Notes under the pieces: model-generated | What the model saw: only the letters and a program-made list of their open reading frames with translations | The model's database searches: none | Told to the model about the DNA's origin: nothing | Translations under genes and position numbers: made by a program | DNA from: a virus | Lineage: Duplodnaviria > Heunggongvirae > Uroviricota > Caudoviricetes | Reading direction: 5' to 3' (one strand) | Virus record (IMG/VR): IMGVR_UViG_2778261069_000008 | DNA: 25,564 bases | Shown: positions 2,780 to 25,437 of the stretch, piece by piece | Numbering within the stretch: the stretch's first letter is position 1 | Layout: each line of letters begins with the position of its first letter

Positions 2780-2854
<75 letters not shown>

Positions 2855-2857
2855 ATA

Positions 2858-2933
<76 letters not shown>

Positions 2934-2935
2934 AC

Positions 2936-3012
2936 TGGACCGCCACCGGGGACTCGAACCTCGCACACTCAACTTAAAGGGTTGACGCTCTTTCCTGATG
3001 AGCTAGTGGCGG
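2936..3012 (-). tRNA. Atypical tRNA-like gene (anticodon loop CCUUUAA, apparent anticodon UUU with C at position 33)
   Basis: Reverse complement CCGCCACTAGCTCATCAGGAAAGAGCGTCAACCCTTTAAGTTGAGTGTGCGAGGTTCGAGTCCCCGGTGGCGGTCCA; 7-bp acceptor, D-arm with GG, T-loop TTCGAGT, CCA end, but C33 instead of the universal U33 and an A-C mispair in the T-stem. Confidence 0.5.
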
Positions 3013-3013
3013 T

Positions 3014-3089
3014 TGGTGGCCCTTGCTGGATTTGAACCAGCGACCTGGCGATTATGAGTCGCTCGCTCTCACCACTGAGCTAAAGGGCC
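3014..3089 (-). tRNA. tRNA-Ile2-like (anticodon CAU; ileX/ileZ-type, could be annotated Met)
   Basis: Reverse complement GGCCCTTTAGCTCAGTGGTGAGAGCGAGCGACTCATAATCGCCAGGTCGCTGGTTCAAATCCAGCAAGGGCCACCA; loop CUCAUAA; strongly resembles E. coli tRNA-Ile2 as recalled. Confidence 0.8.
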
Positions 3090-5854: not shown

Positions 5855-6010
5855 TTACTCCTCAGGTTCGTAAGCTGTGAAGACAGCGACCTCCGTCTGG
5901 TCGGTTCGGATTCGTACCTCGCAGAGGTCTTTCCTCGTTACCAGTGCCGTCACTATGACGGTTAAACAGATGACGATCAGGGCGATTAACATCGCCTTTT
6001 GCTGCTTCAT
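5855..6010 (-). CDS. hok: Hok/Gef-family type I toxin
   Basis: MKQQKAMLIALIVICLTVIVTALVTRKDLCEVRIRTDQTEVAVFTAYEPEE, 51 aa with a single TM helix; matches HokD/RelF as recalled; the track ORF carries a 19-codon in-frame upstream extension. Confidence 0.85.
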   Translation of the reverse strand: MKQQKAMLIALIVICLTVIVTALVTRKDLCEVRIRTDQTEVAVFTAYEPEE

Positions 6011-6422
6011 AGCCTGCTTCTCCTTGCCTTTCGGCACGTAAGAGGCTAACCTACATGTGTCTAGCATGAAATTGGCCTCAGATTAATGTTAAGCGTCTTG
6101 CAGGACGCGTAATGTTAACTGGGGCTTTTCTCTATCTGCCGTTGGTGTTCATGCCCGAGGCAGATAGCCTCAAGCACCCACAGCCATTCTACTTAACTAC
6201 CGTTACCTCGCCAATATGAAATCAGTCAGAAAGGCGATCCATAAGAACAACAGCAAGGCAATAAATTGCCATTACAGCAGCAATAGCCAGCGCACATTTC
6301 AGAACCAGCACAATGACCTCCCACATTTGACGTACACGTGCATGATTCAATATGTGGCAACCTCCTCCTTGCTTCAATGTAAAATCAAGTATTGTTGTAT
6401 AACTATTTAACCAACTCCCTAT

Positions 6423-9432: not shown

Positions 9433-10395
9433 TTACCCCCTGAACCCCGGCGGAATTTCGGTGTCCGGTTCAGAAATATGATTCACACAACGCTGTACAG
9501 GCGAACGCCCCAGGCGGATAACCAGTTCATCCCATTTTTCGCGAAGCTTTGACGGGCTCATGATGTTTTTTACCCAGAATGGATCCCGCTGTACCCGTCC
9601 AAACATTTCGCAAATTTGTCTGTGAGTTCTGCCATCCAGCATCCGCATTGTGCGCACGTCATTGGCCCACGCGGTCCAGTTTGGTTCTTTCGGTCGCGTG
9701 ATCTCGCCATCATCGCTGGCCGCCTGCTCGTAAAGACTCACGATTCGTCCCCAGATCCACTGTGCGCACGCCAAATCTTCCTGACTTCCCCACTGGCGTT
9801 TTTTCGCACTGAACACAACCGCATCAGGGTGTCGGGTTAAAAAATCCTGTTCAGCCGTCTGCGGGTCCGGTTGCGAAGCGTCCGGACAAGAAGATCTTTT
9901 ATCTGACGGATCAGATTTTAATACTGACGGATCGGGGTCAATCATCGCCCCCCTAACCGACCGTTTTTTATCAACGGTTGATCCATCAAAATTTGACGGG
10001 TCAACCGTTGAGGGGTCAATATTTGACGGGTCAACCGTTAACGGGTCATTTTTTGCCGGGCTAATTTTTCTTTTCGGTTTATATGCCTCTCGCGCCGCCG
10101 CTGCTGCAGCTTCGAGTTTTTCCACATTAAGCCGGTAGATATTGCTTACGTTACGTCCGCCAACCTTACGCTCTTCCTTTGTCAGCCAGCCGCTCTTTTC
10201 CAGTTCCGCTATCGCCGCTTTAACCGTTGATTCACTCTTTGCCCCAATCTGACGACGAATGGTCTCTACTGCAGGCCATGACACACCTTCATCATTGCTG
10301 TAGTCTGCAAGACGAGCCATCACTGCCACCCTGGATAAGATCATGCCGGTGAAGGCACACCCTTCCCAGACAAGACCATGAAGCTTGCTGCTCAT
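9433..10395 (-). CDS. Replication initiator (lambda O-like) carrying origin iterons
   Basis: 320 aa; N-terminal HTH-like region; central repeated peptide DPLTVDPSNIDPSTVDPSNFDGSTVD encoded by DNA iterons; followed by the helicase loader. Confidence 0.7.
   Translation of the reverse strand: MSSKLHGLVWEGCAFTGMILSRVAVMARLADYSNDEGVSWPAVETIRRQIGAKSESTVKAAIAELEKSGWLTKEERKVGGRNVSNIYRLNVEKLEAAAAAAREAYKPKRKISPAKNDPLTVDPSNIDPSTVDPSNFDGSTVDKKRSVRGAMIDPDPSVLKSDPSDKRSSCPDASQPDPQTAEQDFLTRHPDAVVFSAKKRQWGSQEDLACAQWIWGRIVSLYEQAASDDGEITRPKEPNWTAWANDVRTMRMLDGRTHRQICEMFGRVQRDPFWVKNIMSPSKLREKWDELVIRLGRSPVQRCVNHISEPDTEIPPGFRG
9900..10085. repeat. Origin-like iteron array plus adjacent AT-rich tract inside the O-like gene
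   Basis: Repeats of ATTTGACGGGTCAACCGTT (two full copies near 9991 and 10021) with partial and inverted copies nearby, followed by ATTTTTTGCCGGGCTAATTTTTCTTTTCGG. Confidence 0.6.
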
Positions 10396-10418: not shown

Positions 10419-10844
10419 TTAGTGCATCACCACGGCATTTCCTGCCGGGCCACCGCGATTAATCTGGTTGAAACCAGCAATTGCCACCGCAATAAAATCA
10501 TCTGCATCCCTCACCAGCCGCTCCCGCGTCTCCAGCAGCTCCCGAAAATAGGCTGAACTGTGACTGCGCATTCGGGCCACCAGCAGAGGCGGCATTGCCT
10601 TTTCGATCGCAGGTAACAACGCCTGAATTTTTTTAACCGCATCAGGAGTGTCTTTCTCTACCCAGCGGAAAATTTTCTGGGTATTGCGAGCCAGGGCTTC
10701 AGGATGGCTGTTGTCGTACAGTTCAGGAAACGTCATACTCAACTCAAAATAAGCCCGGGTTATTTCAGCTGCCGGAACCTTTTCGCCATCAGGACGCGCC
10801 CAGACATTCATCGCTATGCGGATGTGTTCATGCTTGATTTTCAT
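10419..10844 (-). CDS. ydaT: YdaT-like protein of the Rac-type immunity region
   Basis: 141-aa ORF directly downstream of the ydaS-like gene; size and order match Rac ydaS-ydaT; assignment by position and recollection, not by motif. Confidence 0.5.
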   Translation of the reverse strand: MKIKHEHIRIAMNVWARPDGEKVPAAEITRAYFELSMTFPELYDNSHPEALARNTQKIFRWVEKDTPDAVKKIQALLPAIEKAMPPLLVARMRSHSSAYFRELLETRERLVRDADDFIAVAIAGFNQINRGGPAGNAVVMH

Positions 10845-10866
10845 GAATCATTTGCCTCTTGATGTT

Positions 10867-11163
10867 TCAGGTATGATCAAATGAGGATTTGTTACTGTCA
10901 TTTAGTTGCTTCACTGACATATTCTGCGAATAACATGCCGAACGTCGTAAATATGACCAGTCAATATCAGGACGAAGTTCTTCGCACAGAACGTCACCTC
11001 TTGTTGCACGTTCAATTGCTGGACATCTCTCTGCAGGCAATTGACGTACCCCTTTGATCCATTGATTTACGCTTGGAGGTGATACACCTAAAAGCCTAGC
11101 CATTGCTGATTGCCCACCGACAACAGCACAAGCTCGCTTGAATGAATAGTTCTCTTTTTTCAT
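10867..11163 (-). CDS. ydaS: Cro-like HTH regulator (YdaS-like), divergent from the repressor
   Basis: 98 aa; HTH segment QSAMARLLGVSPPSVNQWIKG; divergently transcribed from racR across an operator-bearing intergenic region. Confidence 0.6.
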   Translation of the reverse strand: MKKENYSFKRACAVVGGQSAMARLLGVSPPSVNQWIKGVRQLPAERCPAIERATRGDVLCEELRPDIDWSYLRRSACYSQNMSVKQLNDSNKSSFDHT

Positions 11164-11286
11164 CGAATGAACTCCAAAAACACACAGAGATATTAGGCGA
11201 CGCCTAATACTAATGTCAATAGGCTATGCCTAATGTAGTAAGGGTAGGGATTGCCTAATACAATGAGCATAGGAGAATATTAAGCA
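11164..11286. promoter_or_regulatory. Divergent promoter/operator region between ydaS-like and racR (OR-like)
   Basis: Three operator-like inverted repeats sharing TAGGC-N3-GCCTAAT: ATTAGGCGACGCCTAAT (11192-11208), ATAGGCTATGCCTAAT (11218-11234), TAGGGATTGCCTAAT (11245-11259); AGGAG SD before racR ATG. Confidence 0.6.
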
Positions 11287-11763
11287 ATGCTTAGTGGTAA
11301 AGACTTAGGCCGAGCAATAGAGCAGGCCATTAACAAAAAAATCGCATCGGGATCCGTCAAATCAAAGGCGGAGGTCGCTCGCCACTTCAAAGTCCAACCA
11401 CCATCAATCTATGACTGGATTAAGAAAGGCTCCATAAGTAAAGATAAACTTCCAGAATTATGGCGTTTCTTTTCTGATGTTGTTGGTCCAGAGCATTGGG
11501 GGCTTAACGAATACCCCATACCAACCCCCACCAACTCAGATACAAAAAGTGAACTTTTAGACATAAACAACCTTTATCAGGCAGCCTCTGATGAAATAAG
11601 AGCGATTGTAGCTTTCCTGTTATCAGGAAATGCTACAGAACCAGACTGGGTTGACCACGATGTTCGCGCCTACATAGCAGCGATGGAAATGAAAGTTGGT
11701 AAGTATCTGAAAGTTCTAGAATCTGAACGGAAAAGCCAGAACATCACAAAAACTGGAACTTAA
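11287..11763 (+). CDS. racR: Prophage repressor, RacR-like
   Basis: 158 aa, MLSGKDLGRAIEQAINKKIASGSVKSKAEVARHFKVQPPSIYDWIKKG..., N-terminal HTH; matches RacR in length and sequence as recalled; flanked by operator repeats. Confidence 0.7.
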   Translation: MLSGKDLGRAIEQAINKKIASGSVKSKAEVARHFKVQPPSIYDWIKKGSISKDKLPELWRFFSDVVGPEHWGLNEYPIPTPTNSDTKSELLDINNLYQAASDEIRAIVAFLLSGNATEPDWVDHDVRAYIAAMEMKVGKYLKVLESERKSQNITKTGT

Positions 11764-11858
11764 ACTTATATGGTCTGACGGAAAACTCCTGGATTCCGTT
11801 ATTTAATCCCTCCCATCACTTTTTTCATTCGCATCACCTATTGGGTTACGCCCAGAAC

Positions 11859-11902
11859 ATTAGGCAAAGCCTATTGACAATCAATTAGGCATTACCTATA
11901 GT
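11859..11902 (+). promoter_or_regulatory. pL-like early-left promoter with overlapping operator repeats
   Basis: TTGACA (11874-11879) - 17 nt - TATAGT (11897-11902); two more TAGGC-N3-(G/A)CCTA operator-like repeats at 11859-11874 and 11884-11900 overlapping the -35 and spacer. Confidence 0.55.
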
Positions 11903-12079
11903 TCCAGCATGCCACCCACCCCGCCCCACAGCACGCAGGGCAATACTTCGAGTTACCAGGCAGTGGTCAGGGGTTAAGTAGCCAGCCCGAGGCGTAAGAA
12001 CATGACGGCAGGGTTCAACTTTAACTATGCAGCAGGTTTTTGTTCCGCTACCCCGGCGTTAAGGGGAAATGAGGTCAGC

Positions 12080-12232
12080 ATGGATACTATCGATCTTGGC
12101 AACAACGAATCTCTGGTGTACGGCGTGTTTCCCAACCAGGACGGCACGTTCACCGCGATGACGTATACCAAAAGTAAAACGTTTAAAACCGAAGCTGGCG
12201 CGCATCGCTGGTTAGCAAGAAACTCTGACTGA
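12080..12232 (+). CDS. Small early-left protein (YdaF-like)
   Basis: 50 aa from the internal Met with GAGG SD: MDTIDLGNNESLVYGVFPNQDGTFTAMTYTKSKTFKTEAGAHRWLARNSD; first gene after the pL-like promoter. Confidence 0.5.
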   Translation: MDTIDLGNNESLVYGVFPNQDGTFTAMTYTKSKTFKTEAGAHRWLARNSD

Positions 12233-12243
12233 TGAGGTTGACG

Positions 12244-12882
12244 ATGGAATTTAAAGATTTACCTACTTCAATCCAGGAGATTGCAGCACACACACTTCGT
12301 CATCGTCTGAACGAACTTGCATTGGAATCGGTAACGAAAAAAGACACTGATAATATGGCTCGTAATGTGCGCGATGCGTTTACCGGATTGTATTTCTGTG
12401 CGTCTGTAAATAAACACGACTCAGAGAGTGTGGCAAATAAAATTGCAGAAACGACAGCGCAAAACATCAATACGAAACCAACGGAAGAAGAAATTGATCA
12501 GTTTGCTCATGATGCTGGTTTAAAAAACAAGAAAGAAAAATCGCCATATGCGGGGAACATGTTTGTTTATGACAATCTCATCAGAATTCGTGGCGAAATT
12601 CCGGCGGAATACCTGGCAAGAGTCCATCAGGCATTGCTTAAAAATCTGGAAACAGAATTATTTGATGGCAACACTAACGGTTTCTTCATGGTATCAGGCC
12701 TTGAGAAAGACTGGGATGCAGAAAAACGCTGGAATGTTGCTACATGGTTATTCAGTAACAGAGCCGCTGCCCTGGAAGCTTCGGCATGTATTTGCGGCCT
12801 GTTCTTAACAGACCACAAATATAATCTGGATGTGTACAGTTATATTTACGCTGAACACGGTCCGCTCTGGATTGACTGGTAA
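12244..12882 (+). CDS. Hypothetical early-left cargo protein (212 aa), unrecognised
   Basis: ORF with GAGG SD 6 nt before the ATG at 12244 (alternative ATG at 12232 overlaps the upstream stop); no TM helices or motifs I recognise; occupies the position where lambdoid phages carry exclusion genes such as sieB. Confidence 0.55.
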   Translation: MEFKDLPTSIQEIAAHTLRHRLNELALESVTKKDTDNMARNVRDAFTGLYFCASVNKHDSESVANKIAETTAQNINTKPTEEEIDQFAHDAGLKNKKEKSPYAGNMFVYDNLIRIRGEIPAEYLARVHQALLKNLETELFDGNTNGFFMVSGLEKDWDAEKRWNVATWLFSNRAAALEASACICGLFLTDHKYNLDVYSYIYAEHGPLWIDW

Positions 12883-13092: not shown

Positions 13093-13442
13093 TTTATCCT
13101 CCATTGAGGTTCTGGGTTAAAAATGGAGACCAACACGCTGTCACGTGTGGTCGTGCGCCGGACACGGATAAGAATCCGGTACTGACAGTTTACTGAAAGG
13201 ATATATCCCTGAAAAGCCAGGGCATAACGCGAAAGCACACGGCGAAATTGGTCTCTCTGTACGGTGTCGTTAAATTTAATTCGACCGTGCGCTTCCGGTT
13301 GTGGCACTCCGCGAAATGGCGCGGCGGTAAGTATGGCGGGGTTATTCCTTCCCCGTTGAGGACACCGGGTTGTCAGGTTGACCATACGCTTAAGTGACAA
13401 CCCCGCTACAACGCCCTCTGTTATCAATTTTCTGGTGGCGTT

Positions 13443-13485
13443 TGGCGGTATCAGTTTTACTCCGTGACTGCTCTGCCGCCCTTTT
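13443..13485 (+). terminator. Terminator-like hairpin upstream of the KilR-like gene
   Basis: GGCGG...CTGCCGCC arms followed by CTTTTT; irregular stem, weak call. Confidence 0.3.
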
Positions 13486-13659
13486 TAAAGTGAATTTTGT
13501 GATGCGGTGAATGCGGCTAAGCGCACGCGGAACAGTTAAAACCAAAAACAGTGTTATGGGTGGATTCTCTGTATCCGGCGTTAATTGTTAACTGGTTAAC
13601 GTCACCTGGAGGCACCAGGCACCGCATCAACAAAGTTCATTTGTAAAAATGGAGATAAT

Positions 13660-13882
13660 TATGATTGCTCATCACTTCGGAACTGATGAGATTCCTCGTC
13701 AGTGCGTGACTCCCGGTGATTATGTTATTCATAAAGGAAGAACATATATTGCTTCGGTAAACAACATTAAAAAACAACGGCTCTATATTCGTGATTTTTC
13801 CACACAACACTGTATTAAGGAAACCATGATTAAAGTCTTCCTTGGTCGTGATGGTTTACCTGTAAAAGCAGAGTCATGGTGA
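13660..13882 (+). CDS. Small early-left protein, possibly KilR-like
   Basis: 73 aa from the ATG preceded by [39 protein letters not shown]...; size and position match Rac kilR, but the sequence identity is not confirmed from memory. Confidence 0.5.
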
Positions 13883-16529: not shown

Positions 16530-16739
16530 ATGGCTATGAGCAGCTTATTTTTAACCGAAGATGAATTGCTAATATTAACGGGCTGCAAATATGCAAGCCA
16601 CCAGCGAAAATGGTTAATGGAAAACGGGCTTCCGTTCTATACCAATCGTAGTGGCAAACCGATTGTCAGCCGGGATCTATTTACCTGCAATAAAACTTTA
16701 CCACCGCGCGAGGTAGAGCCGAATTTTGGTGCAATCTGA
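16530..16739 (+). CDS. Excisionase-like small protein
   Basis: 69-aa ORF immediately upstream of and overlapping (ATGA) the integrase gene; LTEDELLILTGCKYASHQRKWLMENGLPFY is typical of small Xis-like DNA-binding proteins. Confidence 0.55.
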   Translation: MAMSSLFLTEDELLILTGCKYASHQRKWLMENGLPFYTNRSGKPIVSRDLFTCNKTLPPREVEPNFGAI

Positions 16740-25041: not shown

Positions 25042-25437
25042 AGGGCAACCTCCGATGAGTATTATTCATTACCACCACCAGAGGTTCCAATCTCATGGGT
25101 GGTGGAACCGGACGGGGTTGGAACTACCGGCCTCATCGACACCGGCGCGTCTTGCGACGCCCCCGCCCGGCCCACCATTGAGATGCAGCCAAGCGCACGA
25201 CACAAAAAAAGCGCTAACGCGCCTTGTGTCGTCGATGAAGTTAGCCAGGGGTTCCAATCCCGACGCCTGATTTTGCAGGCGCAGGGGAAGGATACTGCGA
25301 TGGATAAACAGTGGCAAGAATTAACAACAAAAAAAGAATGACGCAGAAGTCTGTCGAGATTTCAATCTATTATTGAACACCGCGTTCCAACAGGCATACA
25401 CTCCTCAGTGAGACTCAGACTGAGCCAGCCTGTGAAC

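Follow-up and report, generated by a model that had tools for sequence, protein, structure and literature searches.

The closest described system to the locus analysed here is the immunity region of the prophage Rac in Escherichia coli K-12 (racR-ydaS-ydaT, b1356-b1358). Three GCCTAA/TTAGGC repeats were recognised between racR and ydaS in K-12, where RacR formed three complexes in electrophoretic mobility shift assays and was enriched at the intergenic region in chromatin immunoprecipitation with quantitative PCR (PMC5700373). DNase I footprints defined an ATTAGGC monomer motif and W-TAGGC-n3-GCCTA-W operators, the region of the first right-hand operator (OR1) being protected at the lowest RacR concentration, and three racR promoters were described, one of them leaderless (PMC9638921). 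Four inverted repeats were counted in a further study, in which size-exclusion chromatography showed RacR to be an octamer (PMC11014345); in the published view, the four intergenic repeats are occupied by four RacR dimers lying next to one another. This system was compared with positions 10419-11902 of the virus record IMGVR_UViG_2778261069_000008 (IMG/VR; Caudoviricetes), a 25,564-nt stretch of DNA that is referred to as a whole as the 25.5-kb window.

A second close relative is prophage CP-933P of O157:H7 (paaR2-paaA2-parE2 and ydaS-ydaT, with the promoters PR933P, PRM933P and PL933P), which shares with the present locus a divergent repressor and ydaS-ydaT, multiple OR operators, an octameric repressor and YdaT in the place of CII, as well as a second promoter with PR-like -35 and -10 hexamers and left operators (OL) of its own (PMC8630535). 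That promoter, PL933P, was identified together with OL1-3 and is repressed by PaaR2 and YdaS (PMC8630535), so that an OL/PL feature is to be expected for this class. CP-933P differs in its repressor, PaaR2, and its GTTTAGTAA-type 18-bp palindromes, and its repressor operon carries the paaA2-parE2 toxin-antitoxin pair, whereas no such pair is present between racR and OL here. On the evidence set out below, the region is read as the lysis/lysogeny immunity switch of a lambdoid prophage with Rac-type immunity, with a probability of about 0.85.

The divergent regulator genes and the right-hand operators

The window was searched on both strands for TAGGCNNNGCCTAAT with up to one mismatch. Eight strand-wise matches were found, corresponding to five distinct sites with none elsewhere; the chance expectation was 0.06 (standard deviation 0.31), and eight matches were reached in none of 100 shuffles. 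Pairs of sites spaced 24-26 bp occur three times in the window, against none in 200 Markov shuffles. The five sites are near-perfect TAGGC-N3-GCCTA palindromes in two clusters, three in the ydaS-racR intergenic region and two downstream of racR. The first-pass annotation of this sequence had likewise reported five operator-like repeats, three between ydaS and racR and two overlapping a TTGACA-N17-TATAGT promoter, and both the count and the arrangement hold at this threshold, although a weak sixth site over the racR start codon had been missed. By three mismatches the motif is at background (24 matches versus 18 expected), and a two-mismatch site at 12628-12640, inside a 216-aa open reading frame, was accordingly dismissed as a chance occurrence.

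OR1 (ATTAGGCGACGCCTAAT, 11192-11208) is a perfect 7+3+7 palindrome with no mismatch, lying over the spacer and -10 hexamer of the ydaS promoter, and is the same in K-12 apart from the last flanking base. OR2 (11218-11234; zero to one mismatches) abuts the -35 hexamer of the same promoter, and OR3 (TAGGGATTGCCTAAT, 11243-11259; one mismatch), which is identical in K-12, lies over the racR promoter region. The weaker OR4 (TAAGCAATGCTTA, 11279-11295; two mismatches) straddles the racR ATG at 11287. It is kept in all RacR-family loci examined, and its K-12 counterpart has been published as an operator over the racR ATG (PMC9638921). The four sites are spaced 25-36 bp centre to centre. An alignment with the K-12 racR-ydaS intergenic region, which the first-pass annotation had proposed as a check, gave 96% identity with every operator kept, and all of the OR and OL sites (six including OR4) are also present in K-12.

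A scan of the window for consensus promoter hexamers placed the ydaS promoter, PydaS, at 11219-11190 on the minus strand (TTGACA-18-TAATAT; 10 of 12 consensus positions). This is the analogue of PR, and its hexamers (-35 TTGACA, -10 TAATAT) have been mapped in K-12 by primer extension and mutagenesis (PMC9638921). The -10 hexamer of K-12 PracR2, AGTAAG, was located at 11237-11242, and that of the leaderless PracR3, GAGAAT, at 11273-11278. A reverse promoter inside ydaS has been described in K-12 (PMC11879457); the corresponding PRE-like promoter, equivalent to K-12 PracR4, occupies 11041-11101 on the plus strand with its -35 hexamer, TTGACG, at 11041-11046. Its in vitro start lies at about 11076, where the Sen-lab start-site primer GAGGTGATACACCTAAAAGCCTAGCC maps.

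The repressor gene racR (11287-11763, plus strand) encodes a 158-aa protein. The first-pass annotation had called this protein RacR-like and had staked the claim on its alignment; the alignment was found, with 157 of 158 residues (99.4%) identical to K-12 RacR (P76062). With the NCBIfam RacR equivalog model NF049929, whose cutoff is 200, the protein reaches 244 bits, and the full-length K-12 match, the model score and a divergent ydaS with intergenic TAGGC-N3-GCCTA operators together mark it as a RacR orthologue. A Pfam scan gave no match to a Peptidase_S24 domain in RacR, and a PDB sequence search returned no solved relative.

On the minus strand, ydaS (10867-11163) encodes the 98-aa Cro analogue, which is identical to K-12 YdaS at 95 of 98 positions. 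In Pfam it scores 105 bits with YdaS_toxin and 35.5 bits with P22_Cro, for which the cutoff is 30.2 bits. The ydaT-family gene (10419-10844, minus strand; 141 aa) encodes the CII analogue and matches Pfam YdaT_toxin with an E value of 1.2e-9. Its product aligns over its full length with the PDB entries 3c4r (E 4e-85) and 8bt1 (E 2e-77), being about 90% identical to these solved structures, and represents the CP-933P-type allele, just 35% identical to K-12 YdaT. YdaT of K-12 works as an activator in the manner of CII, binding ATGATTCATGAAAATCAA at the start codon of its own gene and acting on the reverse promoter within ydaS (PMC11879457). The YdaT-box here, TTGATTTTCATGAATCAT at 10834-10851, spans the ydaT start codon; it is the sole match in the window to TTGATT-N6-AATCAA at up to one mismatch, and its reverse complement equals the box footprinted in K-12 (PMC11879457). 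The likeness to K-12 Rac extends to RacR, YdaS and the sequence of the YdaT-box, and one difference lies in the ydaT allele.

The operator pair and candidate promoter downstream of racR

Downstream of racR, OL2 (ATTAGGCAAAGCCTATT, 11859-11875; zero to one mismatches) abuts the -35 hexamer, and OL1 (ATTAGGCATTACCTATA, 11884-11900; one mismatch) covers the spacer and -10 hexamer, of a predicted PL analogue at 11874-11902 on the plus strand (TTGACA-17-TATAGT). This is the strong promoter that had been noted earlier; it matches 11 of 12 consensus positions and is identical in K-12. The PL cassette with OL2 and OL1 is located 98 bp past the racR stop codon and is a near-duplicate of the PydaS (PR) cassette on the opposite strand. 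Transcription from PL is predicted to begin near 11909, and the leader after it is rich in C and poor in G. When structure or a nut-like element was sought in this leader, the fold was no better than that of shuffled sequences (z = +1.3); an Rfam scan found no family in the racR-OL gap or the PL leader.

From the racR stop codon through both palindromes, PL and about 170 nt of leader, the sequence is nearly identical to K-12 Rac, where OL1 has the coordinates 1419628-1419644 and OL2 1419653-1419669. Homology is lost only at the place of K-12 ydaG, which is absent here. A possible third left site at 11838-11854 retains the left half-site only (three mismatches). The half-site is ATTGGGT in the window, against ATTAGGT in K-12, other E. 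coli loci including O157:H7, E. ruysiae and phage 683R6, and the counterpart of the whole site has two mismatches in loci L005 and L016 of the comparison. It may be a degenerate OL3, an uncertain assignment given that it is spaced 19-20 bp upstream of OL2 and not 25 bp.

A survey of 5426 complete genomes of E. coli found racR in 1086. At 95-99% identity it is present in 582 genomes, and the OL segment is also present in 582, these being counts compared as totals and not genome by genome. In two sampled loci with racR at about 88-89% identity, one of them from O157:H7, the OL pair lies at +96 and +121 with half-sites and -35 hexamer intact, while the N3 spacers and inter-operator bases have changed. 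OL1 and OL2 are in register in 11 loci of the comparison, and spaced operator pairs did not arise in 200 shuffles of any locus.

Six loci share the cassette [TAGGC-N3-GCCTA]TTGACA-N6-[TAGGC-N3-nCCTA]ATAT on the repressor strand. The repressor is 62% identical to RacR in Mixta (L006), with the pair 91 bp after the repressor gene, 57% in Morganella (L007; 65 bp after), 60% in Proteus (L009; 151 bp after) and 56% in Klebsiella phage KpF5 (L015; about 1.4 kb after). In Achromobacter (L010) and Pigmentiphaga (L011) the N-terminal domain is about 75% identical, and the pair follows the stop codon of a 365-aa repressor by 74 bp and that of a 301-aa repressor by about 1.2 kb, respectively. The same cassette forms the ydaS promoter (PR) on the other strand in every locus. 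Two Pseudomonas phages, whose CI repressors resemble the RacR N-terminal domain, carry a TTTACA version, and one of them is annotated with ydaS and ydaT. Co-variation of OR and OL half-sites was also sought; all relatives found keep TAGGC/GCCTA, so the comparison speaks to conservation only.

In the Achromobacter (L010, 2501-3598) and Pigmentiphaga (L011, 2501-3406) genes, the RacR N-terminal domain (residues 1-77) is fused to a Peptidase_S24 C-terminal domain of the LexA/CI type, and with these repressors come a cro gene of the YdaS family and the OR/OL cassette described above. Because S24 is joined to this N-terminal domain in the betaproteobacterial relatives, the operator scaffold is, as judged from sequence, common to SOS-cleavable repressors and to ones that lack a cleavage domain, which amounts to a predicted domain swap. 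In KpF5 (L015, 3149-4303), a gene for a 384-aa HSDR_N/DUF450 protein stands between the repressor and the OL pair in a rexAB-like position; it may be a defence gene expressed in the lysogen.

The near-duplication of the PL and PR cassettes, together with the cryptic state of K-12 Rac, might be taken to mean that the downstream repeats have no function and are left over from a PR-cassette duplication in a decaying prophage. This is highly improbable: half-sites and -35 hexamer persist against changes in flanks, N3 spacers and the interval to the repressor gene, and the pattern spans Gamma- and Betaproteobacteria as well as the isolated phages KpF5 and vB_EcoS-683R6 and Pseudomonas phages.

A functional alternative is that the OL pair serves mainly as a distal anchor for an octamer loop that would tighten repression and autoregulation at OR, or as a roadblock to read-through from racR into the kil/dicF operon, the promoter itself mattering less or being weak in vivo. 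In solution RacR forms an octamer (PMC11014345), and the octamers of lambda CI and PaaR2 have been discussed together with OL-OR looping (PMC8630535). A terminator scan found no intrinsic terminator between racR and OL (only an 8-bp hairpin, z = -0.16), and read-through toward kilR is lethal in rho mutants (PMC4150792). Against a mainly architectural role stands the conservation, in operator register and across distant genera, of the TTGACA -35 and a -10-like hexamer; moreover, looping or roadblocking is compatible with repression of PL, and both coexist in lambda. We consider it unlikely, though far from negligible, that PL is the lesser part of the arrangement.

The 'PRM-racR/trac' template of PMC4150792, with its 210-nt leader, was considered as a transcript starting at PL and rejected, its primer mapping inside ydaS at about 11076. 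The template starts at the PRE-like promoter and therefore gives no experimental support for PL, and the 210-nt 'untranslated leader' is explained by the 'PRM' of that study being the PRE-like promoter. Promoter names (PRM versus PRE-like) vary between laboratories.

A lambda-like switch weighed against an addiction circuit

In the favoured reading, RacR would take the role of CI and bind as dimers to 17-bp ATTAGGC-N3-GCCTAAT palindromes. On OR1 and OR2, which in K-12 are protected before the others, it would block PydaS and so keep ydaS (the Cro role), ydaT (the CII role) and the replication genes off. Occupation of OR3 and OR4, over the racR promoters and the leaderless start, would give negative autoregulation at high RacR, and RacR on OL2 (at the -35 hexamer) and OL1 (at the -10 hexamer) would silence PL and the leftward early operon. 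YdaT on its box would drive the PRE-like promoter inside ydaS and thereby boost racR.

Much of the evidence comes from K-12, where OR footprints, promoter positions, the RacR octamer and the YdaT-box were established on near-identical DNA and protein (for RacR binding, one residue and a few bases outside the half-sites differ here), and where both arms are derepressed 40- to 100-fold when RacR falls. On RacR depletion, ydaG, ydaF, kilR, ydaE and racC rise 40- to 70-fold or together with a response of ydaS and ydaT of more than 100-fold (PMC6765115; bioRxiv 2026.09.06.749655), and recE, recT, xis and int genes are also strongly derepressed in K-12. The OL/PL cassette probably explains the 40- to 100-fold derepression of ydaG, ydaF, kilR, racC and recE. 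Direct binding of RacR at OL1 and OL2, an active and repressible PL, and any cooperation between OL and OR are inferences made here.

The cI-cro-cII switch of lambda, with OR1-3 and OL1-3, was also compared. Likenesses are the divergent repressor and cro genes, operators about 24-26 bp apart over PR and PRM, a leaderless repressor mRNA, a repressor octamer, OL over PL downstream of the repressor operon, and analogues of CII and PRE. At least three operators are expected at OR of a lambdoid switch, and four lie here over divergent promoters. At the level of sequence there is also an OL set over a leftward early promoter, an arrangement seen in at least 11 loci, and a CII-type YdaT with a YdaT-box and a PRE-like -35 hexamer, TTGACG, at 11041; the CII-type function itself has been demonstrated in K-12 and CP-933P (PMC11879457, PMC9986795). 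The OR/OL-like architecture around a RacR-like repressor that had been proposed is therefore upheld, with an OR cluster and an OL pair over a strong promoter, all shared with K-12. The differences from lambda are four OR and two clear OL sites, an OL-OR distance of about 0.65 kb rather than 2.4 kb, and a repressor whose C-terminal domain is unrelated to that of CI and has no S24 autocleavage domain. Adjacent operators are 25-26 bp apart here, centre to centre, and 23-24 bp apart in lambda.

Several points weigh against a lambda-like switch. The arrangement is lambda-like, but the C-terminal half of RacR is not of the CI family, and since it has no S24 domain, induction would not proceed by RecA-stimulated self-cleavage and the switch would flip differently from that of lambda. 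Unlike Cro, which represses cI, YdaS of K-12 reportedly leaves racR unrepressed (PMC9638921). The leftward derepression could be indirect, acting through YdaS and YdaT, or could reflect read-through from racR; a Rho-dependent terminator inside racR has been reported to limit such read-through (PMC4150792). No experiment was found in the literature in which RacR was bound at OL or a transcription start was mapped at PL. In one relative, Klebsiella sp. L008, no downstream pair was found within 2.5 kb of the repressor gene, and the PR -35 hexamer is also degenerate there.

A more specific proposal within the switch reading is that OL1 and OL2 may be the partner sites of the RacR octamer, with two dimers at OL and two at OR1-OR2 enclosing racR in a loop of about 0.65 kb. 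We advance it tentatively, at somewhat less than even odds.

The three genes have also been read as a toxin-repressor addiction circuit, in which YdaS and YdaT are toxins and loss of the repressor kills the host. In K-12, deletion of racR is tolerated only when ydaS and the intergenic region go with it (PMC5700373, PMC5700377), ectopic YdaS or YdaT is lethal (PMC5700373; PMC5700377), the Pfam names are still YdaS_toxin and YdaT_toxin, and RacR and YdaS here hardly differ from the K-12 proteins. It is, however, general among prophage repressors that their loss is lethal. The P22_Cro score of YdaS exceeds the cutoff, and YdaT, a POU-like/helix-turn-helix DNA-binding protein that forms tetramers, stands in for CII (PMC9986795) and activates a PRE-like promoter (PMC11879457). 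Homologous ydaS and ydaT adjoin CI repressors with a RacR-type N-terminal domain in isolated Pseudomonas phages, and in Betaproteobacteria a ydaS-family cro lies beside repressors that combine this domain with S24. Jobling's critique and an earlier negative toxin-antitoxin test, both summarised in PMC5917428, point the same way, and the field now treats RacR, YdaS and YdaT as analogues of CI, Cro and CII rather than as toxins (PMC5917428, PMC11014345, PMC11879457).

A type II toxin-antitoxin system pairs a direct-target toxin with a labile antitoxin, whereas YdaS is of the Cro family, YdaT binds DNA and RacR is a transcriptional repressor. The K-12 protein whose toxicity was studied is also only 35% identical to the YdaT encoded here; its toxicity acts through host rcsA, and with a different allele this rcsA-linked toxicity is not simply transferable. 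An addiction circuit is accordingly improbable. The first-pass annotation had suggested an addiction-like guard of toxic ydaS and ydaT: the part that stands is the essentiality of racR in K-12, a phenotype that may well carry over to this prophage with a prophage repressor, not an antitoxin, as its mechanism, and the doubtful part is the toxin role, Cro and CII analogues being the likelier reading. The suggestion that both operator clusters guard ydaS and ydaT was wrong, as the OL cluster heads a different operon.

The surrounding prophage and what the locus means

The leftward operon under PL comprises a ydaF-like DUF1391 gene, the 216-aa open reading frame, DicF, a kilR-like gene, a 3'-5' exonuclease gene and the integrase gene. 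The ydaF-like gene comes first (12002-12232, plus strand; Pfam DUF1391, E 1.2e-28); its product is 82% identical to K-12 YdaF over 49 aa, and its real start is likely at 12080. The small RNA DicF is encoded at 13430-13481 on the plus strand (Rfam 76.4 bits; gathering score 48) and is followed after about 170 nt by the gene for a KilR-family FtsZ inhibitor (13649-13882, plus strand; NCBIfam PRK11354 'FtsZ inhibitor protein', 139.7 bits versus a cutoff of 92), which places two FtsZ-directed inhibitors in tandem. The annotated kilS small RNA region, which has the equivalent place in K-12 Rac (L001, 7411-7466, minus strand), gives only a sub-threshold DicF match, 39 bits versus 48, which suggests that KilS is a diverged DicF homologue. 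The full DicF, the kilR-like gene and the exonuclease gene distinguish this operon from that of K-12 Rac, which has recE/recT instead.

On the other side of the switch, positions 9971-10060 hold iteron-like repeats (TCAAnnnTTGAnGGG), at least five to six in number, which recur every 15 bp and show overlapping inverted symmetry. They lie inside the gene for an O-like replication initiator (9433-10395, minus strand; Pfam HTH_36), and this cluster probably marks the origin of the prophage. The initiator has no relation to ydaU of K-12, whereas the DnaC-like gene beside it shares 94% identity with ydaV.

A tyrosine integrase gene (16739-17764, plus strand) directly adjoins a tRNA-Ser(cga) gene (17817-17906, minus strand), and the prophage is therefore integrated at the tRNA-Ser locus near mtfA, and not in ttcA like K-12 Rac. 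A tRNA-Asn gene follows at 18898-18973. The late region holds four tRNA genes (Gly, Thr, Lys and Met) upstream of the lysis genes, together with a hok/sok-type sok RNA. Beyond the attachment site, EFASI RNA, C4 antisense RNA and isrK RNA indicate a second mobile element. The tRNA and small-RNA features of the late region and beyond the attachment site are at 2780-3089, 6005-6179, 22681-22809 and 25095-25282, all on the minus strand. Among the complete E. coli genomes of the collection, none matches the window over more than 60% of its length. As a mosaic, the element joins Rac immunity with a ydaT of the CP-933P type, an O-like initiator of another kind and a ydaV that is DnaC-like.

As a discovery the locus carries little weight. 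It is an ordinary, known lambdoid immunity region: roughly one in five complete genomes of E. coli has racR, ydaS and ydaT annotated, and work on K-12 since 2017 has taken apart the operators, promoters and regulators of the right-hand side. With the ydaS-side operator cluster already published there, this is essentially a known instance of a known system. The sole detail that is possibly unreported is the downstream OL/PL pair, conserved in the RacR family. Outside older subscription-only Rac and sbcA papers, EcoCyc and RegulonDB, a search of the literature found no named Rac OL or PL, RacR looping, RacR ChIP-seq (chromatin immunoprecipitation sequencing) or SELEX (systematic evolution of ligands by exponential enrichment).

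What the comparison contributes is in part a correction, since the 'toxin guard' framing gives way to Cro and CII analogues and the ydaT allele differs from the one whose toxicity was studied. It is also a modest addition: published RacR models, as far as searchable, omit the conserved second operator pair and promoter, and the OL/PL cassette is now documented and conserved for the RacR family and suggests an octamer loop between OL and OR. If that is true, lambda-style long-range cooperativity would be achieved through a C-terminal oligomerisation domain unrelated to that of CI, and the family would be a natural experiment in which induction modules have been swapped on a fixed OR/OL scaffold.

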